Positions 26,417-61,174 of a stretch of DNA of 64,000 bases are shown here, one piece after another; the first letter of the stretch is position 1, and every line of letters starts with the position of its first letter. Source of the DNA: Verrucomicrobiota bacterium (GTDB taxonomy: Bacteria; Verrucomicrobiota; Verrucomicrobiia; Opitutales; Coraliomargaritaceae); contig JBCBZJ010000004.1 in the NCBI GenBank assembly GCA_039815375.1, positions 96,001-160,000 on the forward strand, read 5' to 3'. A program made the translations under genes and the position numbers. The notes below the pieces were generated by a model that saw only the letters and a program-made list of their open reading frames with translations, was not told the DNA's origin and did no database searches.

Positions 26417-26418
26417 GT

Positions 26419-31514: not shown

Positions 31515-32267
31515 ATGACGGTATCCGAAAAAGAAACTATCGGCTCTCGAGCGAGCGAAAATCTGGAGGATAGCTTTTGGGGAAATGAAATTCTCTCGGG
31601 ACGGATTGAACAGTGGGAAAGAAAGGCTCGCCTCCGTAGTTTGCGTTGGGCGTTCGTAATTCGTATGGCACTCTTGCTCAAGCGACTACTTGATATCGTA
31701 GGATCGATTTTCGCAATTATCGTTAGCGCGCCGATTACGATTTTCACCTGCCTTGCCATTAAGTTGAATGACGGTGGCCCGGTACTCTTCAAGCAGTTGC
31801 GTGTAGGCGAAAGCGGGAGGCTATTCAAGATTTGGAAGTTCCGCTCAATGGTTCTTAATGCGGACCAGATCAAGGACGAGATTCTCGAGCAAAACCAGCA
31901 TGCAGACGGCGTGACCTTCAAGATGAAAGACGACCCGCGCATCACCAAACCGGGCAAATGGATCCGCAAATTGTCGATCGATGAATTCCCACAATTTATT
32001 AACGTATTGAAAGGTGACATGTCACTGGTCGGGCCACGACCACCAGTGCCGCGGGAGGTTGCACTCTACGGTGCGCGTCATCTGCGGAGGCTGCGAGCCA
32101 AGCCGGGTATCACCTGCCTTTGGCAGATCGGTGGACGAGCGGATATCGACTTTGAAGGTCAGGTTCGCCTCGATCTTCAATACATCCATTCGCAAAGCGT
32201 CCGGCAGGACATCATCATTTTACTGAAAACCATACCAGCCGTCCTACTCGGCAAAGGAGCCTACTAA
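31515..32267 (+). CDS. Priming (undecaprenyl-phosphate) sugar phosphotransferase, Bac_transf family
   Basis: KRLLD, FKIWKFRSM, DDPRIT, SIDEFPQFINVLKGDMSLVGPRP and KPGITCLWQ motifs. Confidence 0.95.
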   Translation: MTVSEKETIGSRASENLEDSFWGNEILSGRIEQWERKARLRSLRWAFVIRMALLLKRLLDIVGSIFAIIVSAPITIFTCLAIKLNDGGPVLFKQLRVGESGRLFKIWKFRSMVLNADQIKDEILEQNQHADGVTFKMKDDPRITKPGKWIRKLSIDEFPQFINVLKGDMSLVGPRPPVPREVALYGARHLRRLRAKPGITCLWQIGGRADIDFEGQVRLDLQYIHSQSVRQDIIILLKTIPAVLLGKGAY

Positions 32268-32272
32268 CAAGC

Positions 32273-33439
32273 GTGACGGACATACCCACCCAGAATCGTA
32301 ATGGGCCCAAGCACTGGCGACTTGCGCTACCGGACTGGGGAGAACTAGATACAATTTGGAAACGCAAGCTACCCTTTGTGCTGTGGAACGTCGGCGAGCA
32401 AGCACTGCTTTTTCACTGGCTCGATGCCGCAGTGGATCAAGGTAGCGAGAGCATTGAGTTGACCGTTGTCGACCGCCCCGTGGATGTGCGTCAACATATT
32501 GCGGATGCCTCACTCTGGCCGATTGAAATCAAGGTGCGCTCGGTCAATTCGATCGATCCGGATAATGTCGATGATATCGTGGACCGGCTACCCGGAACGC
32601 CTACCCTCTCGAAATCTCCGGCAGATGGTTGGTCACTGCTTCGGCATTGGTTCGAAATCGAACAAGATTGGCTTATTCAATTTGCTGAAGACACTAAACA
32701 ATACGGTAAATACGCCGCCATCGGCCGGAGCTGTAAGATCGCCCCTGACGTAAAACTGAATCCTCCATTCTGGATTGGGAATTTTGTCTCTATCGGCCCC
32801 GGCAGCGTCATCGGGCCGGGTGCCGTGGTGGAAGATGGAAGCATCTTACCCGGCGGAAACCGCGTCGAGCGAGGACACGTTGGCGCCTATACCTATCTTG
32901 GCCCGGAAACCAGCCTCTCCGATGCGGCCATCCACAAAAACGAACTCGTTAATTTCAAGCATCAGGCCCACATCAAGAATCTCGAGTCTTTCGTCGCCGG
33001 TGGGCTGGATAAAAACAAACAGGACCATGCCCCAAGTCCTGCCTTCAAGGAGCGCTGGGCTGCATTAAAGCTCTACCTTAAATGGACCTCTCAAGGATCC
33101 GGCAGCGAAATGACATTCACCGACTTAAGTGGCCAAGAGCGGCCCGCTTTGAGCGACAGTTCGGTCGAGGCTCGGCGACCCTGGCTTAAAGAAGTCGTCA
33201 AAGGCAAACTCCTGCTCTTTGGCGTGACTCCGAGAACAGCCGAGAAGCTTAAAGGCGTGCCGGAAGACTGGCAGGCGATTCTTCGCGAAGCCCCGACCGG
33301 TGCTTTCAGCTACGCGGATGTGATGGGGGCACATGACATTGGTTCTGATGAAGAGACCCTCCACAGCGTCTACCAGGCAGGCGTAAATGCAGAGCGCTGC
33401 CACGAACTTTTTAATAACTGGCTCAAAGAACTTACTTAA
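32273..33439 (+). CDS. Chimeric protein: degenerate NTP-transferase N-terminus + left-handed beta-helix + degenerate Bac_transf-like C-terminus
   Basis: QALLFHWLD...DASLWPIEI resembles an NDP-sugar pyrophosphorylase N-terminus without GxGTR; hexapeptide repeats (IGRSCK, IGNFVS, IGPGSV, IGPGAV); PWLKEVVKGKLLLFGVTP...PTGAFSYADV resembles Bac_transf. Confidence 0.65.
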   Translation: MTDIPTQNRNGPKHWRLALPDWGELDTIWKRKLPFVLWNVGEQALLFHWLDAAVDQGSESIELTVVDRPVDVRQHIADASLWPIEIKVRSVNSIDPDNVDDIVDRLPGTPTLSKSPADGWSLLRHWFEIEQDWLIQFAEDTKQYGKYAAIGRSCKIAPDVKLNPPFWIGNFVSIGPGSVIGPGAVVEDGSILPGGNRVERGHVGAYTYLGPETSLSDAAIHKNELVNFKHQAHIKNLESFVAGGLDKNKQDHAPSPAFKERWAALKLYLKWTSQGSGSEMTFTDLSGQERPALSDSSVEARRPWLKEVVKGKLLLFGVTPRTAEKLKGVPEDWQAILREAPTGAFSYADVMGAHDIGSDEETLHSVYQAGVNAERCHELFNNWLKELT

Positions 33440-33452
33440 CCCACTACAAAAT

Positions 33453-33986
33453 ATGAAAGGCATGGTTTTCACCAACTTCCTCGACATGGTTGAGGACAAA
33501 TTCGGCATCGAAACAGTCGATGCGATTATCGAAGATTCGGATATCCCCTCCGGAGGCTCCTACACTGCTGTTGGCACTTATCCACATACTGAAATGGTCG
33601 CACTACTCGTGTCGCTGGAAAAAGCAGTCTCGATTCCAATCCCTCAACTGATGAAGGTCTACGGCGAACATCTTTTCGGAATTCTGGCCAATGGCTACCC
33701 GGTCTTACTTGAAGGCTGCGAGACTAGCCGGGCACTGCTTAAAAAACTCGATGGCGTGATTCACGTCGAGGTGCAAAAGCTCTACCCCGACGCAGAACTC
33801 CCACGCTTCAAAGCTATCGAAAAGCCTGACGGCAAACTTGAGATGCACTACCTTTCGGATCGACATATGGAAGACTTGGCTGAAGGACTTTTGACCGGCT
33901 GCTTTTTGCACTTCAACGAGAAAGCAAATATTACACGCGAATCGGGATATGATGAAACTATCGTATTTACCATTAGTTACGAATAG
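33453..33986 (+). CDS. H-NOX heme NO/O2-binding protein
   Basis: MKGMVF start, YTAVGTYP, proximal His in IHVEVQKLYPDAELP and YxSxR (YLSDR). Start adjusted to ATG at 33453. Confidence 0.95.
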   Translation: MKGMVFTNFLDMVEDKFGIETVDAIIEDSDIPSGGSYTAVGTYPHTEMVALLVSLEKAVSIPIPQLMKVYGEHLFGILANGYPVLLEGCETSRALLKKLDGVIHVEVQKLYPDAELPRFKAIEKPDGKLEMHYLSDRHMEDLAEGLLTGCFLHFNEKANITRESGYDETIVFTISYE

Positions 33987-33991
33987 AAAGC

Positions 33992-36037
33992 ATGGAAGAA
34001 TCCGAAAAGTGGCAAAAACGCTACCAGCGCGAGCGCAAGGCCCGCACTGAGGCCGAGCAGCTACTTGAGGAAAAGAGTCTCGCGCTCTACACGAAGACAC
34101 AGGAGCTCGACGAGCTCGTCGCGAAACAGAAGAATCTTATTGAGGAACGCACACGCGAACTTGCGACTGCCTCCGAGGAAGCAAGGCTTCTTTCCGACGC
34201 GGTCAGCCGCACCGAAAATGGTGTTATCATTACCGGGCCAGACAACAAAGTCATATGGGCAAATCAGGCTATTTGCAAAATATCCGGCTACGAGACCGAA
34301 GAGCTTATCGGCAGTGTCCCCGGGCATGTTCTACAGGGTTCGGAGAGCGAGCAAGACGTCCGCAAATATATGCGCGGCAAGATTCGCTCACGGGAACCTT
34401 TCGAAGCCGACATCCTGAACTACCATAAAGAGGGACACCCCTACTGGATACATCTGCAAGCCACTCCGGTTCTGGATGAAGCAGGCAATTTCAAATACTT
34501 CGTCGCGATCCAGTCTGACATCACCGAAGAACGGGAGACCCGCACTAAGTTAGTGAGCGAAATGAAACGTGCGAACATCATGGCGAAGCGCGCCAAGGAA
34601 GCGAACGCAGCAAAAACGAAGTTTCTCGCGACCATGAGCCACGAGCTGCGCACACCGCTCAACGGAATTATCGGATACGCCCAGATTCTGGAAAAGAGTG
34701 GTTCCATCGAAGAAAAAGCCGGCAACCAAATACGTATCATGCGTCGTAGTGGGGAACACCTGCTCTCGCTGATCAATGACCTTCTTGACATCTCTAAAAT
34801 CGAAGCAGGTAGCCACAATTTAACGCCCTCACGATTTGACTTGAAGGGTATGCTCCAAAGCGTCGTCGAGATTATTAGCTCAAAAGCCTACGAAAAAGGA
34901 CTTGAGCTTATCCTCGATTACAACGAAGGCAAATTCGTTCCAGACAGACACCGCGCACGTCTTTTTGCCGACTCTCGCGCCCTAAGGCAGGTGCTGATCA
35001 ATTTGTTAGGTAACGCAATCAAGTTTACAGACAAAGGCTCAGTCACTATCAAAGTCGAGATCACAGACTTTCGTGGGGAAAACGCGATCTTGAACATCTC
35101 TGTGATCGATACAGGACGAGGCATTCCTGAGGATAAAATCGACACACTGTTTGACGCGTTTAAACAAGTTGATGAGGAACGCGATGTGATTCAAGGCTCA
35201 GGGCTAGGTCTCTTTATCGCACTGCGCCTCGTCCAAGAGATGGGCGACGAGATTCATGTCGGAAGCACACTCGGAGTGGGCAGCTCATTCTCATTTAAGA
35301 TTGAGTGCCCAATGGACTTCACCGAAGATCGCAAAAGTTCTGTCGACCCAAGAAATAGACCCAATGAAGAAAAGTTCTTTCCCTCAGCATATGACGGGAG
35401 GACGCGCAGGTTACTCATAGTCGATGACGTTGAGGACAATCGAAATTTCCTCATCGATCTACTCCAGCCAATCGGATTCGAACTGGAGGAGGCCGAGAAC
35501 GGAACGGAAGCCTTAAAGAAAATCAAGAATAGCAAATACGATCTCGTGCTCAGCGATGTCATCATGCCGTTCATGAGCGGTTATGACTTGATTAAAACAC
35601 TGCGAGCCGATCCAGAATGTAAGGATCTCTGTGTGATCGCAGTGTCGGCCAGCTTGATGCAACTCTCTACCTTAGAGAAAGATAAGATGAAAAATTTCGA
35701 CGGATTTATTTCCAAACCAGTTCAAGCAAGCGAGCTGCTCGCCACCCTTCGAAACAAACTCGAGCTCGACTGGATCTACCCTGAAACTGAAGAGGAGAAA
35801 AGCAGTGCAAGCCAAAATCAGGAAGGCAGTGAAATCAGTTCCGAGAGCAACTACTTGATGCGCTTGCATTGGCTGGCACGCATTGGCGACATCAAGGCAT
35901 TCAAGACGGAATTCAAAGCACTCAAAGACATTGACGAGGATTTCTACAAGAGACTCTCGATCCTGGTTCGTGGCTACAAGGCGCAACAGTCCGCCGAAGC
36001 TATCGAAAATTACATGCATGAGCACAAACATGGCTAG
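33992..36037 (+). CDS. H-NOX-associated hybrid histidine kinase (coiled coil-PAS-HisKA-HATPase-REC)
   Basis: RERKARTEAEQLLEEKS N-terminal coil, PAS/PAC, SHELRTPL H-box, NLLGNAIKF, DTGRG, GSGLGL and REC (VDD..SDVIMP..KP); no TM helix. Confidence 0.93.
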   Translation: MEESEKWQKRYQRERKARTEAEQLLEEKSLALYTKTQELDELVAKQKNLIEERTRELATASEEARLLSDAVSRTENGVIITGPDNKVIWANQAICKISGYETEELIGSVPGHVLQGSESEQDVRKYMRGKIRSREPFEADILNYHKEGHPYWIHLQATPVLDEAGNFKYFVAIQSDITEERETRTKLVSEMKRANIMAKRAKEANAAKTKFLATMSHELRTPLNGIIGYAQILEKSGSIEEKAGNQIRIMRRSGEHLLSLINDLLDISKIEAGSHNLTPSRFDLKGMLQSVVEIISSKAYEKGLELILDYNEGKFVPDRHRARLFADSRALRQVLINLLGNAIKFTDKGSVTIKVEITDFRGENAILNISVIDTGRGIPEDKIDTLFDAFKQVDEERDVIQGSGLGLFIALRLVQEMGDEIHVGSTLGVGSSFSFKIECPMDFTEDRKSSVDPRNRPNEEKFFPSAYDGRTRRLLIVDDVEDNRNFLIDLLQPIGFELEEAENGTEALKKIKNSKYDLVLSDVIMPFMSGYDLIKTLRADPECKDLCVIAVSASLMQLSTLEKDKMKNFDGFISKPVQASELLATLRNKLELDWIYPETEEEKSSASQNQEGSEISSESNYLMRLHWLARIGDIKAFKTEFKALKDIDEDFYKRLSILVRGYKAQQSAEAIENYMHEHKHG

Positions 36038-37136
36038 TAAAGGCGTCATACTTGTCGTTGATGACAACCCGGTGAACCGGGCGGTTCTTTTCGATTACCT
36101 TGACGGGCAGGGCCATCGCGTGCTTGTTGCCGAGACGGGTGAAGCAGCGGTTGAGATCACCGCTCTTACACGGCCCAATGTGATTTTGATGGATATCATG
36201 CTGCCAGGCATAGACGGCTATCAGGCCTGCCGGCAGATCAGGAGCCAGCCAAAAAATAAAGCGATTCCGATTATTTTCATGTCGGCGATGGACGACAATC
36301 AATCCAGAGCAGAAGGTTTGAAAGCCGGCGGTAATGCCTATGTCACAAAGCCCGTGCTCTATGATGAAGTCAGCTCTCTGCTCCACACCTACCTAAAACT
36401 ACAGACATACGAAACAACTGAGCAAACCAGTAAGAGTGGTCAAACACATGCACTATCGGAGTTCAATGCGATCATTGATATCATCGCGCATGACATGAAA
36501 AGCCCACTCGTTTGTATTCTCGGATTTGCGAGTGAACTTGCCGGCGATTTTGCGGACAAGGACGTTCCCGAGGAATGGGCCGAATACGCGTCTATCATAC
36601 AAAAGTCCTCATCCGATGTGGACGTCATTCTTGAAGCACTCGTGCTATTGAAGAACCTTCGTCTGCGTGAGTGGCATGGAAGCGAGCGGATTTCTTTAAC
36701 CGAAACGCTGGAGGCAGTAGCTGCGCGCTATAATTCAATTGAGAATCTGAAGTTCCTTGAACTTGCGCAAAACCTGAAGGCCTTGGAAGTCATGTCGGTC
36801 AGAACGCTGCTCGAAGAAGTTATCCTGATTCTCTGGCGGAACTTTAGCAATTTGAGTGAAGACGAAGCGCCGTCCCTCCTCGTCGAAATAGATAGCTATG
36901 TTAACGAGAGTGGTATGTCTGTTCTCTGCATGGAAGCGACAACCAGAGAGATTAGCAAACAGGAACTACCCTACATCCTTGAGCCAATGACGGGGGGAAA
37001 GCGCAAGAAGGTCAAAGATACCAATATCCTCACCATTTGTGCTCAGAAGATTATCGAATACCTCGCCATCAACGCCTGGGCTGAGGCAACCGATAAAGGC
37101 CTGAAAATCAGCCTCTCTTTTCCTGCACCTGAATAA
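36030..37136 (+). CDS. REC-DHp protein with degenerate ATP-binding domain
   Basis: Intact REC (VVDD, MDIMLP, KP) and H-box AHDMKSPL; no DxGxG or GxGL boxes in the C-terminal part. Start adjusted to ATG at 36030. Confidence 0.8.
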   Translation: MASKGVILVVDDNPVNRAVLFDYLDGQGHRVLVAETGEAAVEITALTRPNVILMDIMLPGIDGYQACRQIRSQPKNKAIPIIFMSAMDDNQSRAEGLKAGGNAYVTKPVLYDEVSSLLHTYLKLQTYETTEQTSKSGQTHALSEFNAIIDIIAHDMKSPLVCILGFASELAGDFADKDVPEEWAEYASIIQKSSSDVDVILEALVLLKNLRLREWHGSERISLTETLEAVAARYNSIENLKFLELAQNLKALEVMSVRTLLEEVILILWRNFSNLSEDEAPSLLVEIDSYVNESGMSVLCMEATTREISKQELPYILEPMTGGKRKKVKDTNILTICAQKIIEYLAINAWAEATDKGLKISLSFPAPE

Positions 37137-37144
37137 CGCAGAGC

Positions 37145-38863
37145 ATGGTCGAAAACGAGTCAGTCATTTACTTTTCTGAATACCGTATCCAGGCGGATGC
37201 GAAACTGATACAACCTATCCGCCAACGTTTTATCGAATTTCTGCTCTCGCTCGGAATCGACGACCGCGAGAAGGAAGGATGGAAGCTTACCTTCACTGAG
37301 GCCGTAAACAACGCAATCGAACATGGCAGTCAGGACAACCCGGAAAAATCGGTCCGCATTCGCTGGTGGTCGACCGAGCAGTCGGTCTGGCTGGAAACCC
37401 AGGATGAAGGAACAGGGCCCGATGAGGAAAAGGCAGCCAACCCGACTCTCCCGGAAGACCCGCTCGCAGAAGGTGGGCGCGGTCTCTTCATCATTCATAA
37501 TTTCGCAGACGACTTCGTTCATTGGCGCAGCCGTGAGGGTTACATCGCCCGGATTGGGAAAACATACCCGCGCTTAAACAGTGTCATGCCACAGAATGCG
37601 GAGATGGATGCGATTCTTGACGAGCTCTCGGACTGCTATGAGAGCCTGTCACTCTACGACCGAATGGCCGAAACGCTGATTCAGGATGAACGTGTGGACA
37701 AGTTCATCGATTCAAGTTTGGAAATCTTCATGGACGCACGGGATTACGATGTGATCGACATCGAGGTCAAAGAACCGGATAAGTCCTCCGAGTATAAATG
37801 GATCGCGACTCTGGTTTCACATGCTGCATTGGGAAAATTAAGGCCTGAGCTTTGGCGAAATCTGGAAGATCAGGAGTCACTCAGTTGGCATGCCGAAAGC
37901 CAAACACATCCCTTGGAACCAAAGTCCGAATACAAAGCTGGAGGTGCCGTTCCAATTTATGTGAACGACCAAGTCGTCGGCCTAATCGCAGCAGCCTACG
38001 AATCAGGCGAACGAAATATGCGCTCAAACGACCTCCGCAACTTGCGGGCGCTCGGCGACATAATCGGTATCGCACTCTCACGCGCGGTGATGCAGCGTGA
38101 ACGCGACGAAAAGAAGCGGCTCGCCACCGAAATCAACATTGCAACCAAGCTGCAGCATCAGCTCCTGCCAATAAGCAAGGAACCGCCGGAAATCGCCGGC
38201 TACAACATATTCATTGACAGTATTTCGGCGCTGGAGATCGCCGGCGACTACGTCGAAGTGCGCCGGAGTTCATCCGACGAGTATCTGGGTTGTGTCATCG
38301 ATGTGATGGGGAAAGGCGTCTCCGCAGCAATTCTAGCCGGCATTTTCAGAAACCAGTTTCTCGCCTTCAGCGAACGTGGCGGAAAGCTGGTTTCCTTCCT
38401 GGAATCAACCAACAAGGCTCTGGAGACTCAGCTTGGTGATGCGACCATGTTCATCACAGCCTTCGTCTTTAAGCTAAACAACCTATCCCATGAGTTTTCC
38501 TACGTTGCTGCGGGGCACCCACCGGCAATCTTCTTCAAGCATGGAGAGGAAACGGAACAATTGCTCTCCAAAGGACCGCCGATTGGCCTCTTTAATGAAA
38601 TCGAATACAGCGAAGACTCAATTACCCTGAATCCACAAGACCGAATCGTTATCGTAACCGACGGTCTCTACGAGTTCAGCACTTCCAAGGACCACATCTA
38701 TGGGTGGGACAGAATGGTCGAGTGGTTCGAAGCCAATAAAAAAGAGGCCTCTGAAATTATATGGCATGAATTCCATGATCTCATCGTCGAAAGCCGGGCA
38801 AAACTTGGTATCCAGCAGGAAGACGACGAAACACTTTTAATTCTAACCCGTGATGCAGAATGA
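37145..38863 (+). CDS. Bifunctional RsbW-like Ser kinase - GAF-like - SpoIIE/PP2C phosphatase
   Basis: Kinase boxes TEAVNNAIEHG, QDEGTG and EGGRGLFII; PP2C motifs AGDY, DVMGKG, AAGHPP, TDGLYE and EDDET. Confidence 0.92.
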   Translation: MVENESVIYFSEYRIQADAKLIQPIRQRFIEFLLSLGIDDREKEGWKLTFTEAVNNAIEHGSQDNPEKSVRIRWWSTEQSVWLETQDEGTGPDEEKAANPTLPEDPLAEGGRGLFIIHNFADDFVHWRSREGYIARIGKTYPRLNSVMPQNAEMDAILDELSDCYESLSLYDRMAETLIQDERVDKFIDSSLEIFMDARDYDVIDIEVKEPDKSSEYKWIATLVSHAALGKLRPELWRNLEDQESLSWHAESQTHPLEPKSEYKAGGAVPIYVNDQVVGLIAAAYESGERNMRSNDLRNLRALGDIIGIALSRAVMQRERDEKKRLATEINIATKLQHQLLPISKEPPEIAGYNIFIDSISALEIAGDYVEVRRSSSDEYLGCVIDVMGKGVSAAILAGIFRNQFLAFSERGGKLVSFLESTNKALETQLGDATMFITAFVFKLNNLSHEFSYVAAGHPPAIFFKHGEETEQLLSKGPPIGLFNEIEYSEDSITLNPQDRIVIVTDGLYEFSTSKDHIYGWDRMVEWFEANKKEASEIIWHEFHDLIVESRAKLGIQQEDDETLLILTRDAE

Positions 38864-39228
38864 AAAAAGTTCTCGTAGTCGATGACGACATTGTAATGTT
38901 CCGCCTGTTTCAGGTGCAGGTAAAACGAGCCGGTTGCGAAGGCTTCTTCTTCCGCGACGGCCAGTCCGTGCTCGACCAGTTCGAAAGCATAAAACCGGAC
39001 CTCGCGGTGCTGGACTATAACCTGCCCGACTACAATGGCGCAGAGCTATATCGCCGCATCCGGGAGATGTCCTGCGGGAAGGACATCCCCATCGTTTTTG
39101 TGACGGGAACAGTTCAGGATGATGAACTGGAAGACATAAAGGCCGTCGGCGCGGATGCCTCTCTCTCCAAACCGTTTAGCCCACGTAAGCTACAGAACCT
39201 CATTAAAGAGCTTCTGGATATCGAATGA
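38860..39228 (+). CDS. Single-domain response regulator
   Basis: VLVVDDD, LDYNLP phosphoacceptor, VTG and SKPF; 122 aa; ATGA-coupled on both sides. Confidence 0.93.
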   Translation: MKKVLVVDDDIVMFRLFQVQVKRAGCEGFFFRDGQSVLDQFESIKPDLAVLDYNLPDYNGAELYRRIREMSCGKDIPIVFVTGTVQDDELEDIKAVGADASLSKPFSPRKLQNLIKELLDIE

Positions 39229-44137: not shown

Positions 44138-44154
44138 ACTCAAACTGCCCTATC

Positions 44155-47562: not shown

Positions 47563-47964
47563 TTATCTACCATGGGTCGGATCCCACTCGTGATAGTGCA
47601 GATCCCGCCCTTCGATCAGATTAATAAGATTGTTGGCTAGAAGAAGGCCGAGGCAGCCTACAATAATGACCCATGACAGGATGAGCAGATACCAAATCTT
47701 TCGGAAAGCCATCTGCCTAAAGAAACGTCCAACAGCAGAACGTGTAATTGTTAAACCCACAGTCAGAACAAACAAAAGATAAGGATAGTAGAGAGACTTG
47801 ATTACATCACGCAGCCAGATCGGATACCCTCCTGCATCAATCCAGAAAAGCCGGCTTTCCTTCCACGTGGTGAACTGAATCAACGAGAAAGAAAACGCCA
47901 GTAACCCGACGATACTTATTCGTTCCGTCCAGCTTGAAGGTTGGTATTTTATCTTTATAGCCAT
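47563..47964 (-). CDS. Hypothetical small membrane protein (3 TM)
   Basis: 133 aa with three hydrophobic segments; overlaps the upstream GT4 stop. Confidence 0.65.
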   Translation of the reverse strand: MAIKIKYQPSSWTERISIVGLLAFSFSLIQFTTWKESRLFWIDAGGYPIWLRDVIKSLYYPYLLFVLTVGLTITRSAVGRFFRQMAFRKIWYLLILSWVIIVGCLGLLLANNLINLIEGRDLHYHEWDPTHGR

Positions 47965-52688: not shown

Positions 52689-53761
52689 TCTTCATCCCTC
52701 CATCCCGTTCGATCAAACCATGGGTCCTGAATCAAGTCAGGCACGTTTTCGTTTACCCAAGTCGATGTGGCACTCTTGAGGAAATTCTGAATCGCAACAT
52801 CGATTATCTGCTCGGCCTTATACCATGGCCTGTTGTTCACATAAACGATATCCCCCGGCTGCAGCGCAAAGTCACGATCCCGTCCTTCGAGAATAGCTTC
52901 GACATTAATGACAAATTTCTCCGGATCACTGAGGCTGCCGCGAATGACAAGAACCCGCTTCTTCCATGAACCTTCGGTAAAGCCTTCCCTGCGGGTGACG
53001 GCAGAGATCACGCTGGCACGGTTGGAGAAGCCCTGCGCACCAGGCTGGGCAACCGCTCCCAAAACATAATATTCATTGGAAAGATTGGACGCGAGAAAGA
53101 TGTAGTCCTGCGGTTCGAGAAAAACGTTTTGCTGCAGATCACCCTCAAAGTAGAGCTTTGAAAAGTCCACATCGAGGCGTTCACCATTCCGTATGATAAA
53201 GGAGCGCTCCATGTCGGCAACTTCCACAGTCGATTGCTCAAAGAGTCCGGTCTCGATGCCACGGCTCCGGGCAATGGCTTCCAACAAGGTGATTGGTCGA
53301 TCCAGCGTGAAGACGCCCTTGTCGATCACTTTCCCAAGAATCACGTAGCGCTTACTCTTTAACTCCCAAGGCGTAATAATCAGCCGTGGGTTGCGGTAGT
53401 AATCGCCCAATGCTTTCTCCAATGCACCACGCAGCTCGTCGATCGTCATTTTATCTACCTGCAAACTATTCACCTGTAGATAGCTGAGCGTGCCGTCCGG
53501 TGCAATACGCACTCCTGGCCGGTCCAATTCGCCCCGACCATAGAAACGGATATTGATCACATCACTGGGGCCGAGGGTATAACGTTCGCGCCAGGAAACC
53601 AATGCTTCCACCAGATCTCGCTCAGACTCGGGCTCAGCCGCCTCCACGTCTTCAGGCTGCTCATTCACCGAGGCAATCTCGGCAGGCTTAAGCTCTTCTT
53701 CAGCCAAAGCTATCGTAGCCATAGCGAAAAGGCCGAACCATTTTCGGATACTTCGCATCAT
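52685..53761 (-). CDS. Second polysaccharide export (OPX-like) protein with SLBB domains
   Basis: Signal peptide without Cys; YTLGPSD...IAPDG, LEPQDYIF and LQPGDIVYV motifs. Confidence 0.87.
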   Translation of the reverse strand: MMRSIRKWFGLFAMATIALAEEELKPAEIASVNEQPEDVEAAEPESERDLVEALVSWRERYTLGPSDVINIRFYGRGELDRPGVRIAPDGTLSYLQVNSLQVDKMTIDELRGALEKALGDYYRNPRLIITPWELKSKRYVILGKVIDKGVFTLDRPITLLEAIARSRGIETGLFEQSTVEVADMERSFIIRNGERLDVDFSKLYFEGDLQQNVFLEPQDYIFLASNLSNEYYVLGAVAQPGAQGFSNRASVISAVTRREGFTEGSWKKRVLVIRGSLSDPEKFVINVEAILEGRDRDFALQPGDIVYVNNRPWYKAEQIIDVAIQNFLKSATSTWVNENVPDLIQDPWFDRTGWRDEE

Positions 53762-55743
53762 GTCTCTTCAGCCTTCGGTTCACGGCTTGCCAACATATTG
53801 AGAACCATCATCTCGATCCACTTCAGGACACGTGGAAGTGTGTTGTCTGTTTCCTGATCCACGATCAGCAAGCCATCCGCAGGGCCCAGCAACTTGCGCA
53901 TGATGTCACTTTTGTGGCTAGTCTCGTTGCGCTCTGCGATACTAGGGGAGTTGATTAAGTAATAGGCCTCCAACTTCTTCAACTGGGCGACCTCGTCAAC
54001 GATCGGGATTTTTGCCATCCGCACGAAGACCAGTTCATCCCCACTTTCAGGAATATCATCTAAAGAGTCATAAAAAGACTTCACCGCTTTGTGCTCACGA
54101 AGCCCAGCCACCAGATCATCGCTATTCGCACTTACGCTAATGAAGATCACCTGCCGATCTTCCGAGTGAACCAAATCAAGCAGGTCTCCCCAGAAGATCA
54201 TCTCCTCATCGCAGACATCGGTCGGCACAAAAAGAAAGTGCTTTCGTTGCACACCATCACCCGAAATCGCATGGGTGAGCCAAAAGCTCCGCAGGGCACG
54301 ACCATTTAAGGCACTTTCCTCTTTTCGGAATAGACGCCGAACACACCAAGAGGGTTTCTTTGCGCCCTCAGTAACATAGTTGAAAATCGGGAGTGCTCCA
54401 GTCGCAATGGCGGCTTCAAGCGGGGTGCGCAGACCCGGCTGGAGGGCCTCCCAAAAGAGCGCAATCAGCAGCGCAATCGCTAAACCACCGGCAAAGCCGA
54501 CAAAGCCAAGTAGAAGTGCTTTCACATTCTGAGAGCTGTAAGCCACTTCATTGAGGTCTGGCTCCTGAAAAACGCGCCAGTATCCAGGTGCCTTTGTTTC
54601 ATAAAACGAGGCTTCCTTACGGCGACTATCAAGCAGAGCCTGTGCATCAATCAGGAGATCACGGCGGCTCTTCAATTCGGAAAGTCGGAGCGCTTTCTCC
54701 GGCAAATCAGCAACGAGCACTTCCTGTTCAATCAGTCGTTGCTCCAGACTCTTTAACATTTTTTCCGTCTGCGTGCGCTCGTTCTGTAAAGCGATGATCT
54801 CGAGGTAAAGGTTGTTGCCGAGGTCGCTTCCGGTGAAATCCTTCAAATCTTCAACCGAAGCATCGGCAGTCGCCTCGAGCTGCTGGTTGATGTATTCGAT
54901 CTCGTAGAGCTTCTCCTTCACCAACGGATTTTCATCGGTATAGCGCCCACGAAGGAAAGTCAGTTCCTCACGCTTCTTCTTTATGTCGGCCTCGAGGGGA
55001 CTTTGCGCGCGCAGCTCCTCACGATAACGCTTGATCTGGACGTCTTTCGTCTCGAGAGCAATACGCATATTGGAAAGCTGTATCTTCGTATTTTCGAGCG
55101 TAGAAAGTGCGGTCTCAGTCTGTTTATCGACATCGACGAAGTTATTCTTTTTTGCGAAGTCGAGGATCTGCTGGTTTACCGCACCAAGCTGGCCCTCTAT
55201 CGCATCCAGTTGCTCGGAAATAAACTCCGCCATCTGGCGGGCCTCCTCTTTCTGAAGGTTATTGGTGAATCGGATAATTTCTTCCGCCCATACGGAAACC
55301 GTTTGAATCGCATCCTCGGCGCTGAGCCTCGAGTGGGCGGTTAAATAAAACAGCGAGGTATTCCGCTGCTTCGCAATCTCGACCATCGACTTGACCTGAC
55401 CGGGACTGCGTTCCGGCTCAAGCCGCACAGAAGTTCGATTCAGAACCTCGGTTGAATAAGTCGTCGAAAGCAAAGTATCGTCACTTAACTCCCGAGGCTT
55501 AAAGGCCTGTCCCGATTCGCTCGTCTGCACTGTATTCGGCACTTCTGATTTGATCAGCTGAAGGGAAACGGAGTAACGGTTATCCGTTTTCAATCCGCCG
55601 ACGAACCAACCGATACCACCCAGAACAATGGGCAAAATAATGAACCAAAGCCAACGCTGGCGGACACCGTAGAGCAAACGAAGCGGGTCAATCGGTATCG
55701 GAAAACTAAAGGCTTCTGGTGTTCGGTTTGAAGGAGGCGTCAT
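53758..55743 (-). CDS. Polysaccharide co-polymerase (Wzc/GumC-like) with degenerate kinase domain
   Basis: Two TMs flanking a coiled coil with RYTDENPLV; the C-terminal domain lacks a Walker A GxGKS and a Tyr cluster. Confidence 0.85.
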   Translation of the reverse strand: MTPPSNRTPEAFSFPIPIDPLRLLYGVRQRWLWFIILPIVLGGIGWFVGGLKTDNRYSVSLQLIKSEVPNTVQTSESGQAFKPRELSDDTLLSTTYSTEVLNRTSVRLEPERSPGQVKSMVEIAKQRNTSLFYLTAHSRLSAEDAIQTVSVWAEEIIRFTNNLQKEEARQMAEFISEQLDAIEGQLGAVNQQILDFAKKNNFVDVDKQTETALSTLENTKIQLSNMRIALETKDVQIKRYREELRAQSPLEADIKKKREELTFLRGRYTDENPLVKEKLYEIEYINQQLEATADASVEDLKDFTGSDLGNNLYLEIIALQNERTQTEKMLKSLEQRLIEQEVLVADLPEKALRLSELKSRRDLLIDAQALLDSRRKEASFYETKAPGYWRVFQEPDLNEVAYSSQNVKALLLGFVGFAGGLAIALLIALFWEALQPGLRTPLEAAIATGALPIFNYVTEGAKKPSWCVRRLFRKEESALNGRALRSFWLTHAISGDGVQRKHFLFVPTDVCDEEMIFWGDLLDLVHSEDRQVIFISVSANSDDLVAGLREHKAVKSFYDSLDDIPESGDELVFVRMAKIPIVDEVAQLKKLEAYYLINSPSIAERNETSHKSDIMRKLLGPADGLLIVDQETDNTLPRVLKWIEMMVLNMLASREPKAEET

Positions 55744-55772
55744 ATGATATTAATTTATTCAGAAACCGGATG

Positions 55773-56930
55773 CTATTTATCAGTCAGCCTAGCGGTCTCT
55801 AGATAGCTCTGGCAAGTAGCCATTGCAGCACGGCCCCAGTCAAACCTGGACGCATGAGAGCGCCCTTTGGCAAGACGCGCCTCACGTTCTAAAGCATTTT
55901 CAGTGCATAACTTTGTCATTGTGCGTGAGATTTCGTGCACATTTTCCGGATCAAAGTAAAGCGCTGCATCGCTACCGACTTCTGGCAGGCTGCCTCGGTC
56001 CGAAGTTGCGACTCGACAACCGCAGGCCAACGCCTCGAGGACCGGCAAACCGAAGCCTTCGATCAGACTGGGAAAAACCAATCCCTCCGCAGAAGCATAC
56101 CAGAGCGGCAGGTCGGCCTCATCGATAAAGCCGGGCATCCGAATATCCGCCGCAAATGGCGAACTTGCGGCCCGGGCTTCGATCACCTCAGCACCATGCC
56201 AGGGCGCACCGCCAAGCACCAACAGATGCTCCTGCCCTGTCTTCTTTCGGTAATCCTCATAAGCCTCAATCAAGCGAACGTGGTTCTTGCCCGGATGCTC
56301 CAGACGCGAAATAAACAAAAGAAAGGGTCGCTCGATGCCCTGTTTCGTGCAGAACGCCGCCGTCTCTTGAATTGTGCGGGGACGATAGACGCTGTGGTTC
56401 AATCCATTGTAAACGACATCCACACCAGTTTCCGGAAGTTTGAAGAATTCGACCAGATCTTGTTTCGTAAACTCGCTTACCGTGAGCACGTGCGCACAGC
56501 GGCGAGCCATCCAGGGCGCAACCTGACGACCAAACAGCCCACGCAGAAATCCGTATTTTTCGCGCAGGCGAAAAGGCGCACAATCATGAATCGTCGCAAG
56601 TTGTGCGATCGGGGAAAAAGCAAGGATGCGGCGATAGCTCGGGATATGGAGAAGATCGTAGCCTCCGGCCTTCAGCAGCGAGGGCAGCCTTCGCTGATGC
56701 CAGATCAGGTTTTTCAGGCCGCCTGCAGCCGCTTCGGGAATGGAAACCCAGCTCGCATCATCAATCGCTGCAAAGAGCTTTCGATCCGCATCAAGGCCTG
56801 CGATATGCAAATCCACTGTATCCATTTCAGCAATACGTGCAGCAAGCTCAACGACATAACGCCCCACTCCGGACAGACCACCCTGAATCATTCCGGCAGA
56901 GAGTAATACCTTGGGTCTCGAACTAAGCAT
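55773..56930 (-). CDS. Glycosyltransferase family 4 (mannosyltransferase-like)
   Basis: SGVGRY, TIHD, TVSEFTK, KNHVRL and FPSLIEGFGLPVLEA motifs. Confidence 0.92.
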   Translation of the reverse strand: MLSSRPKVLLSAGMIQGGLSGVGRYVVELAARIAEMDTVDLHIAGLDADRKLFAAIDDASWVSIPEAAAGGLKNLIWHQRRLPSLLKAGGYDLLHIPSYRRILAFSPIAQLATIHDCAPFRLREKYGFLRGLFGRQVAPWMARRCAHVLTVSEFTKQDLVEFFKLPETGVDVVYNGLNHSVYRPRTIQETAAFCTKQGIERPFLLFISRLEHPGKNHVRLIEAYEDYRKKTGQEHLLVLGGAPWHGAEVIEARAASSPFAADIRMPGFIDEADLPLWYASAEGLVFPSLIEGFGLPVLEALACGCRVATSDRGSLPEVGSDAALYFDPENVHEISRTMTKLCTENALEREARLAKGRSHASRFDWGRAAMATCQSYLETARLTDK

Positions 56931-58389
56931 TTACCCTCCCCTCGACCAGGAGATCGTAAACGCCCGTCATACGCATGGTTTGCAAAGCTTGCTCTTTGGG
57001 ACGAATGACCCGAAGCCGCAGTCCCCTTGAGTGCAGTGAGCGGTATGCATTGAGAAGCTGGGAGATAGCGAAGGAATCGAGCATCTCTAAATCGGACAGA
57101 TCGAGCATAAGGATTTCGCCTTCCAAGAGCTCCTCTACGGCTTGGTTCAGAACTTCCTGGCACTCAAGATGATCTTTCCTACCAAAAGGTGATAGCAGCT
57201 TAATGACTTTTTCCTTGAGAACATGGGCAGGGCCGAGTTGAGCCATAACGAAATCCATCGCCTCGCGTTCGTCATGATAGGAGGGGAGCTGAGCATCAAG
57301 ATGCATGGCCTGAATCACTTTTTCGACGACTTCAGATGGATGAACGAGACCAAAGATCACACCAGCTGCATGGGACTCACGGGCAACCTTTGCCAACAAG
57401 CCTATGCCGGAACTGTCGATAAAGCTGACGCCACTAAGATCAAGAAAGAGAGGACGATCATAGCCTGGAGGCAGCGGTATCGTATCGAGATTTCCTCGTT
57501 CGACTTCTCCACCCCACGACAGGAAGTTGCACTCGTGCTCCCCTGCCTGAGGCACGTAGCAAGTTGGAGCTTGAGAGATGGCTTCTTCCTCAAGGCGCGG
57601 CGATTTCTGATCTGAGACAACAGGCTTCTGAGCCGTTAACTGGCGTTGGCGATTCGCGAGCACGGCGAGATAATAAAAATCTTTTGCGTAGCGTTTCACC
57701 AAGCGCTTCGGATTCATTGCCATCCGCCAGCACCACTCCATACCGACCTTCTGCACCCAGACCGGTGCACGGGTTTGCGTGCCGCAGATGAAATCAAGTG
57801 AGGCACCAATTCCTATTGAAAGAGGGACGCCAGCCTGCTCGTAAAAACGCGAAATCCAATACTCCTGCTTCGGGCAGCCCACCGCGACAAGTAGCAGATC
57901 CGGCCTTGTCGCATGGACATCCTTGATGATTTCTTCATTGGGCCATGCGTCGACGGAGCAGAAAGGCGGCGAGAACGCCCCCACTACTTCCATGCCTGGA
58001 TAGTCCTTCGCCAGAATCGATTTGGTCTGGGCAAGCGTCTCCGTATCGGAGCCGAGAAAGTAGACTTTCCAGTTTCGCCCATCGGCCTCCCTGAACAATC
58101 GAAAGACCATATCAGAGCCTGCCACACGTTCGGGCAGAACCGGCTTGAAGTAGCGGGAGAGCCAGACCAGAGGCATACCATCACAGACCACACGATCGGC
58201 ATGAAAGAGAATATCCTTCAGCCCTTCGTTGCTGTAGGCTTGAGCAATGAAGTCGGCATTTGCTGTAACATAATAACCGGGCTTGCGGGCTTCAACCTGC
58301 GCCACGGCATCGCCAACCGTCTCCTCCATAGTGATAACATGGAAAGGCAAGCCCAGTAGAAAGGCTACATCACGGTCAGTTTTGATCAT
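56923..58389 (-). CDS. WecB/TagA/CpsF glycosyltransferase fused to two STAS domains
   Basis: TANAD, CDGMP, ERVAGSD, VAVGCPKQE and GMEWCWR..PKRLVKRY, then STAS 1 (LDLSGVSFIDSSGIG) and STAS 2 (LDLSDLEMLDSFAI). Start at 58389 from the ATGA overlap. Confidence 0.92.
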   Translation of the reverse strand: MIKTDRDVAFLLGLPFHVITMEETVGDAVAQVEARKPGYYVTANADFIAQAYSNEGLKDILFHADRVVCDGMPLVWLSRYFKPVLPERVAGSDMVFRLFREADGRNWKVYFLGSDTETLAQTKSILAKDYPGMEVVGAFSPPFCSVDAWPNEEIIKDVHATRPDLLLVAVGCPKQEYWISRFYEQAGVPLSIGIGASLDFICGTQTRAPVWVQKVGMEWCWRMAMNPKRLVKRYAKDFYYLAVLANRQRQLTAQKPVVSDQKSPRLEEEAISQAPTCYVPQAGEHECNFLSWGGEVERGNLDTIPLPPGYDRPLFLDLSGVSFIDSSGIGLLAKVARESHAAGVIFGLVHPSEVVEKVIQAMHLDAQLPSYHDEREAMDFVMAQLGPAHVLKEKVIKLLSPFGRKDHLECQEVLNQAVEELLEGEILMLDLSDLEMLDSFAISQLLNAYRSLHSRGLRLRVIRPKEQALQTMRMTGVYDLLVEGRVNA

Positions 58390-59594
58390 AGCTTCGTTAG
58401 ATATTGGTTCAGCTTGGCCCCGAGTTGCTCCCAAAGGTAATTGGATCGAACGGTTACAAGTCCGACGGCTTCAAGTGACAGGCGCAGCTCCTCATCATTC
58501 AACAAACGAACCACTGCATCAGCCATACCGGTCTCGGTATCGGCCAGGAGAATATCCTTCTCATTTTCGAGATCGAGCCCCTGTGCGCCCAAGGTGGTGG
58601 ATACGACGGGGCAGCACATACCGAGCGACTCGACAATCTTGAGGCGGGTACCGCCGCCAATCCGCAGCGGAACCACCTGTGACCAGGAAGACTGGTAGTA
58701 CGGGCGAACATCAGGCACTTCGCCAACCAGCTCGATACCATCAATTGCGGTCCAACGTTCGGAGCGGGCATCTGGTGATTTACCGACTATGCGCAGGACT
58801 GCCTCCGGTATTTCCTGATGGATTTTTGGCCAGATCGAATCGGCAAACCAATTCATCGCGTCGACGTTGGGCGAGTAATCGAGTGCACCGCAAAACAGAA
58901 CCGTCGGGCTATCGGTGAGTTGGCGCGGGTAGGCCTCAGCGTCAAAAAACTCTGCCGTGTAACCGTTCGCGAGAACAAAGACCTTGTCGGCATCACCGAG
59001 CTTTTCCTCAAGGAAAATCTTATCATCCCAGCCGCAGACAATCATTCCGGAAAGGGCCGCGTAAGCCTCGCGCTCAAGTCGGGCGATTTTTCCAAGATTC
59101 TCTTTTCGCAGAAAGCGTTCCTTAAAAGACAACTTGAGCGTGTTGAACTCTTCCGTCTGAAAAAGCCAATCCACCCGGCTGCGGTCCATGATACGGCAAG
59201 GGTGATCCGGGAAGAGCTCACGTATATAGGGCCAAAGCACGAGATCGATAAAGACGACGCGGTCATAATCCTGGCCCTGGACAAATCCTCGTAATGCGTC
59301 AGCCACGCCCTCGACCTGCCAATGCTGCACCGTAGTGGGCAAAGAGTTCAGCAAACGGTCGGGAAAGAGCCGCTGCCATGGAGCATTCTTGAATGGTATC
59401 GCCAGCCTCCGTGCGGTGTAGGGCTCAAAGGGCTCCATCGTGCGGGAGGCATCTTCCTGTAGGCAGGCCAGATCAATCTCAAAGGACTTCGACAATTCAA
59501 TAAAGAGATGAAACACGCGTTGGTAAGTGCCCCGATCTACCGGAAAGGGAATGTAGGGCATAAAAAGAAAAACACGTGGTTTTGCCGAAGACAT
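58386..59594 (-). CDS. Glycosyltransferase family 4
   Basis: PFPVDRG, FCGALDYSPN and VPLRIGGGTRLKIVE motifs. Start adjusted to ATG at 59594. Confidence 0.9.
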   Translation of the reverse strand: MSSAKPRVFLFMPYIPFPVDRGTYQRVFHLFIELSKSFEIDLACLQEDASRTMEPFEPYTARRLAIPFKNAPWQRLFPDRLLNSLPTTVQHWQVEGVADALRGFVQGQDYDRVVFIDLVLWPYIRELFPDHPCRIMDRSRVDWLFQTEEFNTLKLSFKERFLRKENLGKIARLEREAYAALSGMIVCGWDDKIFLEEKLGDADKVFVLANGYTAEFFDAEAYPRQLTDSPTVLFCGALDYSPNVDAMNWFADSIWPKIHQEIPEAVLRIVGKSPDARSERWTAIDGIELVGEVPDVRPYYQSSWSQVVPLRIGGGTRLKIVESLGMCCPVVSTTLGAQGLDLENEKDILLADTETGMADAVVRLLNDEELRLSLEAVGLVTVRSNYLWEQLGAKLNQYLTKL

Positions 59595-59596
59595 CT

Positions 59597-60682
59597 TCAA
59601 CTGTAGTATTGCCACCACTTCGTGTAAGACGAGACTGAATCCGCTAAGTTTTCAACCGTTTGTCCAAAAATTCCAGAAACCGCTTCATAATCCGGTTCAG
59701 CCTCAAGCAAAAGGACAAGCGCACGCTGCAGTGCACCCCTAGGGTAATCCGTATTCGGATGCAGGCAGCCGCCCCGTTTGAGCCGATCACGGAGACTTAG
59801 AAGTAGATTTCGAAGCGCCGGGGAGTCGGTGAAAAGTTTACCAGAATAGGTCGCATACGCCTGGGGCCTATTGAAGTTTGCTTTGAGGCGAGCTGACTCA
59901 ACCTCCAGGAAACAGCGCCGCCAGAGATTGGTCAATTCCGCCTGAGTCGCCCGGAGCTCTTCGATCGGTGGTGTGGCAGTCGGCCGAAGCTTGAAGGAAA
60001 CGCCAATTTCATGTAGCTCGGCAATACGCGGGTCGATATCAGTCTGCTCACGAAGCGCTAACTGACGCTCGCGGACATAGGCACGATACTTCCCACGAAT
60101 GGTCAGCAGAGCATCGCCGAGAGCGAGCTTCGCTTTGGCCTGATTGCGATGCACCACACTGAGGTCAACGTTAGCCTCAAGATCGGCCCGCGCAAAAAGC
60201 AGTCCGGAGCCTCGATTCCAGAGTAGACGTGTTGCTTCGATCAGCTCGATCGTATCCGGCTTTGCCATGACTTTGTAGTCATCGAAAAAATTCTTGGGGC
60301 CGGAGACAATCGTCTGCGCTGCAACCAGATCATAGAACATCATCGAACCAGGCGTTTGGCTGAGGTCCGACCGGGGAAGGCATTTGCCCTCCACATCGAT
60401 TCCCATGATCTTGCTCTCCTCACGCTCCCACTCGCGTAGGGCATAAATGATTTCAGGGTCTTCGGGTAAATCCGTGAAGATGAAGTAATCCAGATCATTG
60501 AAGAAGCAGGGTGATCCATCGGGAGCTGTCGCGATACCGCCCTCACCTCGTCCATAGCCGCCACCAAGCACAATAGCCTGTGGCGCTTTTGAGCCGAGAT
60601 TATCAAAGTGAGCGATGGTGCGCTCGAAGTGAGCCCTCAATTGCGCATCTAAATCTGATGGCAATGGCACCGGCTCAAACAT
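59597..60682 (-). CDS. Putative pol-beta-superfamily nucleotidyltransferase with helical C-terminal domain
   Basis: IVLGGGYGRGEG...FNDLDYF matches the hG[GS]..DhDh NTase signature; a third acidic residue is possible in IDVE. Confidence 0.65.
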   Translation of the reverse strand: MFEPVPLPSDLDAQLRAHFERTIAHFDNLGSKAPQAIVLGGGYGRGEGGIATAPDGSPCFFNDLDYFIFTDLPEDPEIIYALREWEREESKIMGIDVEGKCLPRSDLSQTPGSMMFYDLVAAQTIVSGPKNFFDDYKVMAKPDTIELIEATRLLWNRGSGLLFARADLEANVDLSVVHRNQAKAKLALGDALLTIRGKYRAYVRERQLALREQTDIDPRIAELHEIGVSFKLRPTATPPIEELRATQAELTNLWRRCFLEVESARLKANFNRPQAYATYSGKLFTDSPALRNLLLSLRDRLKRGGCLHPNTDYPRGALQRALVLLLEAEPDYEAVSGIFGQTVENLADSVSSYTKWWQYYS

Positions 60683-60697
60683 GGGACTGTTTTTTGT

Positions 60698-60997
60698 TTA
60701 GTCCGCTTCGATTTCAAATACACGGTGCAATCTGAGAAGCTCAAGAACACTCAAAACCGTGGCCGTGGGCTTTCGCAGAATCACCTGCCGATTCATTTGC
60801 TTATAAAAGCTGAGCAATGCACCGATACCGGAACTGTCGATAAAATTGACCGACTCCATGTTCAGCACAACCATGTCCATTCCTTGCAAGTCCAGATCCT
60901 TTAGTTCTGCCTTTGCCTCAGTCGCGTTTGAGGCATCAAGTGAATCAACGCCGATCACAACCTCGAGCATTCCTTCTTCTAGCTTTGAAGATAACAT
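60698..60997 (-). CDS. STAS-domain anti-sigma-factor antagonist (SpoIIAA/RsbV/SypA-like)
   Basis: LDASNA and VNFIDSSGIGALL with the phosphorylatable Ser; 99 aa; first gene of the minus-strand arm. Confidence 0.92.
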   Translation of the reverse strand: MLSSKLEEGMLEVVIGVDSLDASNATEAKAELKDLDLQGMDMVVLNMESVNFIDSSGIGALLSFYKQMNRQVILRKPTATVLSVLELLRLHRVFEIEAD

Positions 60998-61108: not shown

Positions 61109-61174
61109 TGAATCGAGCAAATCGATACTAATTTCACCGGTTGACAAGGAGCCGTCAGCCACTTCTAACTACAA

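Follow-up and report, generated by a model that had tools for sequence, protein, structure and literature searches.

A Wzx/Wzy polysaccharide locus of a verrucomicrobium with a predicted serine switch on a STAS-fused glycosyltransferase and an optional H-NOX cassette

In Vibrio fischeri, nitric oxide (NO) inhibits the biofilm that depends on the syp polysaccharide locus, and the gas sensor HnoX inhibits the kinase HahK (PMC12369376). In the same organism, phosphorylated SypA is inactive and unphosphorylated SypE inactivates SypA (PMC4517449); the target of SypA was reported as not known in papers of 2015 and 2021 (PMC4517449, PMC8256260). In Anabaena, All4160 is inactivated by phosphorylation of its STAS domain, which was shown in 2026 and called lineage-specific by its authors (PMC13555669), and in Caulobacter the WecG-family enzyme HfsJ is inhibited through its C terminus by HfiA (PMC3900383). 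We have analyzed a comparable arrangement in a window (the whole stretch of DNA analyzed, 64,000 nucleotides, positions 96,001 to 160,000 of contig JBCBZJ010000004.1, assembly GCA_039815375.1) from a Verrucomicrobiota bacterium, where a single locus codes for a polysaccharide pathway together with an H-NOX gas sensor, a hybrid histidine kinase, a serine kinase/phosphatase and STAS domains. With moderate confidence, we read it as a Wzx/Wzy locus with a built-in serine switch that acts on a STAS-bearing WecG-family glycosyltransferase and on a free STAS protein, with NO setting the switch through the H-NOX cassette. By analogy with the systems above, NO would likely turn off the synthesis of a slime polysaccharide at the enzyme itself.

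The locus appears to work like syp and All4160 and to belong to neither, since the defining domain arrangements of both are absent. With syp it shares an NO-sensing H-NOX paired with a hybrid kinase, a serine kinase/phosphatase and STAS inside the polysaccharide locus, and the lack of a sigma-factor partner. In contrast to syp, the window has its sensor within the operon, and a GAF domain occupies the middle of the kinase/phosphatase, with the receiver encoded separately by the next gene; SypE is a response regulator with the receiver on the kinase/phosphatase chain. A REC-DHp protein stands in the place of Hpt, with no SypF-type Hpt in the locus; the sigma54 protein, unlike SypG, lacks a receiver, and no -24/-12 match is found upstream of the arms; and the STAS domains, unlike SypA, are fused to a glycosyltransferase. 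An earlier reading made from the sequence alone (the sequence-only reading) had called the locus a compact, rewired equivalent of syp. Of this, the serine partner switch in a polysaccharide locus and the sensor in the operon stand, while the sigma54 output is not supported and the convergent layout is limited to the family of the window.

The likeness to All4160, Alr3423 and HenR lies in a phospho-acceptor STAS fused to a polysaccharide enzyme and in an RsbW-type kinase set against a SpoIIE-type phosphatase. All4160 is a priming Bac_transf enzyme with its STAS at the N terminus; its kinase and phosphatase are separate proteins, with no upstream kinase reported. In the window, a STAS pair is found at the C terminus of a WecG/TagA enzyme, one chain carries kinase and phosphatase, and the operon itself includes a candidate sensor. 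As with HfiA and HfsJ, a WecG/TagA-family enzyme would be the posttranslational control point of polysaccharide synthesis (of an adhesive in Caulobacter) through its C terminus; there, however, a small inhibitor protein exerts the control, not a fused STAS or serine phosphorylation. From the Bacillus pairs RsbW/RsbV and SpoIIAB/SpoIIAA the locus repeats the kinase, phosphatase and STAS folds with their catalytic residues, and differs in having no sigma factor and in carrying kinase and phosphatase on one chain.

The fusion of STAS domains to a glycosyltransferase is the most informative feature of the locus. This protein had been listed as a TagA-type glycosyltransferase; the enzyme class is correct (WecG domain, 187 bits), and what had been overlooked are two STAS stretches, matched by Pfam, that follow the WecG domain and a linker at the C terminus. 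Its predicted structure (predicted local distance difference test score, 84.6; predicted template modeling score, 0.71) matches TagA (7mpk) and chains of the SpoIIAA/RsbV type. The first serine of the D-S-x-G motif is the phospho-acceptor in the STAS family, and the motif of the fusion aligns on that of SpoIIAA. In the first STAS domain, for which 118 of 120 homologs were aligned, Asp325 is kept in 118 of 118 and Ser326 in 117, the next residue is variable, and median column conservation across the domain is 43%. The second STAS domain retains D-S in 60 to 61 of 66 aligned rows, and a downstream D-S/T motif is present in 32 of the 33 metagenomic WecG loci with long matches. The free STAS aligns on the DSS motif of SpoIIAA (Table 1). 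A STAS with a conserved phospho-serine joined to a polysaccharide enzyme is, then, present in the window. The Bac_transf protein of the window carries no STAS, and its predicted complex with the free STAS scored 0.00, a result that weighs neither for nor against binding. No account of either a WecG-STAS fusion or the present locus turned up in the main text of openly accessible papers.

Genomes that code for the fusion tend to code for the putative serine kinase/phosphatase as well. Among 301 genomes of the order, RsbW-GAF-PP2C is present in 45, namely, in 15 of the 18 with WecG-STAS and in 30 of the other 283, a contrast that is inflated by kinship. In one fusion genome without it (G118), a Cys replaces the serine, which we count in favor of the switch. 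The kinase and phosphatase domains of this protein had been recognized from the sequence alone; the domain between them is a GAF domain, not a REC. Residues E52, N56, D87, G111-R112-G113, D368, D386, D506 and D560-D561 are invariant in 12 of 12 sequences, and a free REC follows directly in 40 of 41 loci.

The same module also exists away from polysaccharide genes. From 54 listed places we fetched 16, chosen away from WecG-STAS matches; one was an exopolysaccharide (EPS) cluster, and the other 15 were analyzed. These stand-alone copies have a divergent STAS (14/15), a following REC (14/15) and, in 6 of 15, an Hpt after the REC, and in the stand-alone module L147, without EPS genes, a hybrid kinase and a REC-DHp occupy the slot before RsbW. 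No sigma factor was found among the 29 nearest neighbors of the stand-alone modules, nor in the locus itself. With STAS, RsbW-GAF-PP2C and REC recurring together and Hpt next to them in 6 of 15, the module appears to be built for His-Asp input, which indicates that the free REC is probably the phosphorelay input of the serine switch and that the slot takes various kinases. Six stand-alone RsbW-GAF-PP2C/REC/Hpt modules of Opitutales (L142, L143, L145, L146, L153 and L157), five of them with a divergent STAS, have no adjoining sigma factor or polysaccharide gene.

Conservation was followed in 47 named loci anchored on the marker protein (Table 1), 44 of them Verrucomicrobiota-type clusters and three from Myxococcota/Deltaproteobacteria; handle-based and named locus sets overlap, and their counts are not additive. 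The neighborhoods show that the signaling genes are conserved beside EPS genes in relatives. RsbW comes after the marker in 42 of the 47 loci, the five misses being two early-ending contigs and the three Myxococcota/Deltaproteobacteria loci. In 33 of 47 loci (five are cut short), the free STAS is divergent and less than 400 bp from the priming transferase. Of the 31 loci whose flanks are long enough, 21 have WecG-STAS no more than 10 kb away; five of the ten without it come from the clade of the window, in whose relatives the arms are rearranged. The conserved core consists of free STAS, RsbW-GAF-PP2C and free REC within a Wzx/Wzy cluster, and with gene order conserved across Verrucomicrobiota, the arrangement is not due to chance. 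The convergent layout recurs in four relatives of the window's family (G019, G564, G578 and G628); G001 is divergent, as are most relatives (33 of 47 loci). Within the phylum, the marker protein was found in 14 of 401 genomes, in four of them weakly, so the cluster is patchy.

A tree built from four concatenated markers has two deep clades with the cassette at an identical site and shows losses beside close kin (L098 beside L097); its root support is 0.47 to 0.50, and it does not establish the order of gains and losses. It omits L126, which has a stop codon; one of the four markers is missing from L101, L104, L131 and the three non-Verrucomicrobiota loci. These three (L118, L124 and L129) have only the trio of free STAS, priming transferase and marker, a possible split counterpart of All4160. 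Two loci (L057:8736-13432 and L059:10347-15032) contain exosortase, EpsI-like, TPR and DUF4114 genes inside the second arm, which are absent from the locus of the window. Another locus of the window's clade, L096 (56 to 77% identity to window proteins), one of the 44, is in a bin with a gammaproteobacterial title, Zhongshania aliphaticivorans, and is possibly misbinned or transferred.

The H-NOX protein matches HNOB with 135 bits (cut-off, 25.5) and solved relatives down to an E value of 8e-42. H104, P117, Y133 and S135 are invariant in 16 of 16 sequences, and R137 is nearly so. The oxygen-binding Tyr is not present: at the distal position, which we place by counting from the YxSxR motif with a presumed numbering, the window has Leu142, and none of the 16 H-NOX sequences has a Tyr there. 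A Leu at this position points to NO rather than oxygen as the probable ligand. Tyr140 has been named as a distal residue, and its influence on NO kinetics was called not preponderant (PMC10411614). The hybrid kinase has intact catalytic motifs and an N-terminal segment that is common to other H-NOX-linked kinases. The His of REC-DHp is kept in 12 of 12 sequences; the ATP-binding domain of this protein is intact in family f12, whereas members of the window's family have a degenerate one. There is no Hpt in the locus, and three matches over the cut-off lie on other contigs of the genome, so the earlier description of the locus as self-contained was overstated. A stand-alone Hpt is encoded on contig C10. 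That the gas sensor sits inside the predicted biosynthetic operon is, on the other hand, borne out.

Between marker and RsbW, 10 of the 47 loci have H-NOX and a hybrid kinase (plus REC-DHp where the contig reaches), two have another hybrid kinase with REC-DHp (L099 and L100), one has REC-DHp alone, and 31 have nothing. As the cassette is found in 10 loci only, H-NOX is an optional cassette and not a defining part of the cluster. H-NOX occurs in 16 of the 301 genomes of the order, in or beside a polysaccharide cluster in 12, nine of the window type and three of a second type. It lies outside polysaccharide clusters in G116, G295 and G011, the last with GT4 genes 6 to 17 kb away and no priming, WecG or export gene; the contig of G124 is cut off. 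The second type has H-NOX and a hybrid kinase, together with a sigma54 activator that bears a receiver, beside other transferase and export genes (G014, G152 and G163; also G015). Its H-NOX forms a clade of its own (support, 0.98), from which it follows that the association of H-NOX with polysaccharide genes arose more than once or is old. In L122, H-NOX and a kinase are at a third site within the cluster. The second-type loci L020/L021 (G014), L018 (G015), L080/L081 (G163) and L079 (G152) contain a priming transferase, a WecG-GT2-GT4 multi-enzyme fusion, which in G015 includes Bac_transf too, and an OPX protein. This architecture is nearer than that of the window to the SypG model of the sequence-only reading.

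From the observed gene content, tight coupling, intact catalytic residues, fusion, conserved serine and optional cassette, we infer the following steps, all of which are put forward conditionally. Without NO, the kinase would transfer phosphate from its His to the REC on the same chain; REC-DHp, or an Hpt encoded elsewhere, would receive it on a His and hand it on to the free REC. The phosphorylated free REC would keep RsbW-GAF-PP2C in phosphatase mode, the STAS domains would be unphosphorylated, WecG would be active, and polysaccharide would be made. NO bound to H-NOX would inhibit the hybrid kinase, and RsbW-GAF-PP2C would shift to kinase mode; with Ser326 of the fused STAS and the free STAS phosphorylated, repeat-unit synthesis would stop at an early point, its second step. 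We propose the direct step on the enzyme because of the precedent of Anabaena All4160, the sign of the NO effect because in V. fischeri HnoX inhibits HahK and unphosphorylated SypE inactivates SypA, and WecG as the control point because of Caulobacter HfsJ.

More tentatively, the system might be a plug-in socket of Verrucomicrobiota (REC, RsbW-GAF-PP2C and STAS) that directly phosphorylates a glycosyltransferase, with H-NOX plugged in in two Opitutales families, so that a single locus would lead from NO to a polysaccharide enzyme, with neither a transcription factor nor cyclic di-GMP (c-di-GMP) involved. If the serine switch works as proposed, the fusion would imply that the target of Vibrio SypA is an early glycosyltransferase, and direct control of a polysaccharide enzyme by STAS phosphorylation would extend to another phylum and enzyme family. 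It would also name a candidate sensor where the Anabaena system lacks one and offer a c-di-GMP-independent route from NO to matrix synthesis. The proposal is testable in cultured strains with and without the cassette: Cerasicoccus maritimus NBRC 105382, C. frondis NBRC 105381 and Thalassobacterium maritimum SDUM461003 carry it, and in the sister species T. sedimentorum SDUM461004, H-NOX and its kinase are missing.

Several points weigh against this proposal. Other organisms are the source of the assumed ligand (NO, or redox state), and Vibrio and Anabaena that of the sign. The transfer from REC to DHp is assumed, and 35 HisKA matches plus the three Hpt in the genome could cross-wire; the f12 REC-DHp, with its intact ATP-binding domain, may be a kinase and not a shuttle. 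The slot is without a kinase in as many as 31 of the 47 loci, and G116 holds the H-NOX cassette without polysaccharide genes. Three of the 18 WecG-STAS genomes have no detectable RsbW-GAF-PP2C, and they differ in their first STAS, with a Cys for the serine in G118, a degenerate domain in G210 and an intact D-S-T-G in G259. At the 33 metagenomic WecG-STAS loci, many of them short, the available DNA contains RsbW in one and H-NOX in none. Finally, a free STAS accompanies 14 of 15 stand-alone copies of the generic module and already supplies it with a substrate, so that the fused STAS domains may not be its target.

This last point leads to the alternative that survives best, although we consider it unlikely: the switch would act through the free STAS only, on the priming transferase, the marker protein or a distant sigma factor, and the STAS domains of WecG would serve for docking or as a decoy. 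The free STAS does accompany RsbW-GAF-PP2C even where there are no EPS genes, its trio with the priming transferase and the marker persists in the three Myxococcota/Deltaproteobacteria loci without adjacent RsbW or WecG-STAS, All4160 of Anabaena has its STAS fused to Bac_transf, and a second region-1.2 sigma factor is encoded in the genome, besides many of extracytoplasmic-function (ECF) size. Nevertheless, neither the locus nor the 29 neighbors of the stand-alone modules include a sigma factor, and few STAS residues are conserved as strongly as the fused serine, which would not be required of a mere decoy.

It is less probable still that the H-NOX cassette is merely cotranscribed and signals elsewhere through a distant Hpt, the serine switch having other inputs. 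Against this, two deep clades carry the cassette in the exact pre-RsbW slot, other hybrid kinases are found there too (in L099 and L100, and without EPS genes in L147), and H-NOX adjoins polysaccharide genes in three architectures. What such cotranscription would explain is the lack of the cassette in 31 of 47 loci, its loss beside sister taxa (L098 versus L097), its presence without EPS genes in G116 and the Hpt domains elsewhere in the genome.

The sequence-only reading had ended the relay at the sigma54 activator, which would drive both arms as SypG does, and this we now regard as very unlikely. The activator is within the locus, at the same place, in the window and four family relatives (G019, G564, G578 and G628), with an 84% ortholog in G017; its Walker motifs are intact, and rpoN is present in the genome. 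However, the window protein lacks both a receiver and a sensor domain, its orthologs likewise have no receiver, and no ortholog was found in the five f12 genomes with a complete H-NOX cluster or in G001 (93% complete). A -24/-12 site was found neither ahead of the two arms of the window nor in the 11 upstream regions of family relatives, and 26 divergent intergenic regions gave one weak match. The sigma54 protein thus appears to be an accessory found only in the window's family and not the end point of the relay. A 10/10 sigma54 match near 48168 was rejected as chance, as it lies antisense inside a GT4 gene, is one of 12 such matches in the genome and is not in the matching arm of G019 or G001.

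The absence of synthesis of c-di-GMP, the usual biofilm messenger, was noted before for the window and extends to the genome: the entire 99.9%-complete sequence yielded no GGDEF domain, in a search that was positive in 8 of 14 reference genomes used as controls, and GGDEF is also absent from four of five relatives with the H-NOX cassette. The Pol-beta-like nucleotidyltransferase is present in 22 of 35 loci with enough flank and the phosphodiesterase-family gene in 29 of 35, and one Atlas cluster, with 103 members, joins the two domains in a single protein; they are a candidate writer/eraser or donor/transferase pair. No solved-structure relative of the nucleotidyltransferase was found, and matches to ACK1 at an E value of 0.08 are noise. 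Least probable of all is that the STAS domains sense a local nucleotide signal from this pair in the place of c-di-GMP, for although both genes are common, can be fused, have invariant transferase motifs and occur in a genome without GGDEF, substituent activation and nucleotide recycling fit as well given the pyrophosphatase and uridine kinase beside them, no solved relative is at hand, and the most constrained STAS residue is the phospho-serine. A second, distant family II pyrophosphatase (26% identity) lies near 21445 of contig C40, so the copy in the locus is an extra one.

The locus lies within contig C40 of a 3.56-Mb genome, and the nearest homologs of window proteins carry names from Coraliomargarita, Lentimonas and other Opitutales, in line with the verrucomicrobial host proposed before. 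Its GC content (49 to 54%) matches that of the rest of the window, which gives no indication of recent horizontal arrival. The two convergent, tightly coupled arms described in the sequence-only reading are confirmed: 14 genes on the plus strand (31515-47366) and 12 on the minus strand (60997-47563) meet at a gap of 196 bp (47367-47562), in which no terminator-like site was found, and all 24 junctions measure -10 to +29 bp, with 4-bp overlaps in 10. The likely starts of H-NOX (33453), REC-DHp (36030) and WecG (58389) are downstream of the longest open reading frame (ORF) starts.

Gene identities come from Pfam/NCBIfam profile matches and translation (Table 1). They agree with the earlier inventory for the priming enzyme, five GT4, one GT2, the WecG/TagA enzyme, Wzx and two OPX proteins, so that the priming transferase, glycosyltransferases, flippase and export proteins of a Wzx/Wzy-dependent pathway are all found, and for the signaling set of H-NOX, PAS-HisKA-HATPase-REC, REC-DHp, RsbW/PP2C, free REC, free STAS and sigma54 AAA+-HTH protein. 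The Wzy-like protein (28.8 bits; Pfam cut-off, 31.7) and the co-polymerase-like protein are both below curated cut-offs, and their topology and synteny fit. Six genes had been absent from that inventory: the truncated NTP-transferase/LbH (marker), phosphodiesterase-family, family II pyrophosphatase, uridine kinase, Pol-beta-like nucleotidyltransferase and 133-aa membrane protein genes. The C terminus of the marker as a degenerate priming transferase reached an hhalign probability of just 5% and remains a lead.

Table 1. Genes of the polysaccharide locus, with positions in the window
Product	Position	Strand	Features
Priming phosphoglycosyl transferase (Bac_transf)	31515..32267	+	Family-specific N-terminal extension with invariant W22, W34, W45
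Cluster-marker protein	32273..33439	+	Truncated NTP-transferase-like domain, left-handed beta-helix, C-terminal part weakly phosphoglycosyl-transferase-like
H-NOX heme gas sensor, 177 aa	33453..33986	+	His104, Pro117, Y133-x-S135-x-R137, Leu142
Soluble hybrid histidine kinase	33992..36037	+	N-terminal segment, PAS, HisKA, HATPase, REC; no Hpt match
REC-DHp, predicted His shuttle	36030..37136	+	His154 invariant
RsbW-GAF-PP2C, putative bifunctional Ser kinase/phosphatase	37145..38863	+	Profile match, invariant catalytic residues
Free receiver domain (REC)	38860..39228	+	Profile match
Phosphodiesterase/nucleotide-pyrophosphatase family protein	39225..40379	+	Profile match
Family II inorganic pyrophosphatase (DHH-CBS-DHHA2)	40372..42015	+	Profile match
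GT4 glycosyltransferase	42012..43271	+	Profile match
GT2 glycosyltransferase	43268..44137	+	Profile match
GT4 glycosyltransferase	44155..45387	+	Profile match
Wzy-like polymerase	45388..46752	+	Below Pfam cut-off; 11 hydrophobic segments
Uridine kinase	46749..47366	+	Profile match
Membrane protein, 133 aa, no known family, seen in the window's family	47563..47964	-	
GT4 glycosyltransferase	47955..49106	-	Profile match
Sigma54-type AAA+-HTH protein, GAFSGA loop, without receiver or sensor domain	49103..50059	-	
Wzx flippase	50056..51567	-	Profile match
OPX export protein 1	51567..52688	-	Profile match
OPX export protein 2	52685..53761	-	Profile match
Polysaccharide co-polymerase-like protein	53758..55743	-	Weak TIGR03007 match, below curated cut-off; two hydrophobic segments
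GT4 glycosyltransferase	55773..56930	-	Profile match
WecG/TagA glycosyltransferase with two C-terminal STAS domains	56923..58389	-	Predicted phospho-acceptors Ser326, Ser439
GT4 glycosyltransferase	58386..59594	-	Fused to WecG-STAS in two relatives
Pol-beta-like nucleotidyltransferase, no Pfam family	59597..60682	-	Invariant GGGYGRGEG and N62-D63
Free STAS protein	60698..60997	-	D54-S55-S56 invariant in 32/32

Elsewhere in the window, a tRNA gene (14912-14982, minus strand) lies beside an ATP-dependent DNA ligase (15042-16646) and an Mla-type ABC operon (10954-14324). Three ORFs of 726, 947 and 244 aa at 21350-27153 (minus strand), with no Pfam match, come after a MarR-family gene (27287-27733). 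A TPP riboswitch (71 bits; 61174-61287, plus strand) is upstream of a TonB-dependent receptor (61346-63484), which is likely a thiamine receptor.

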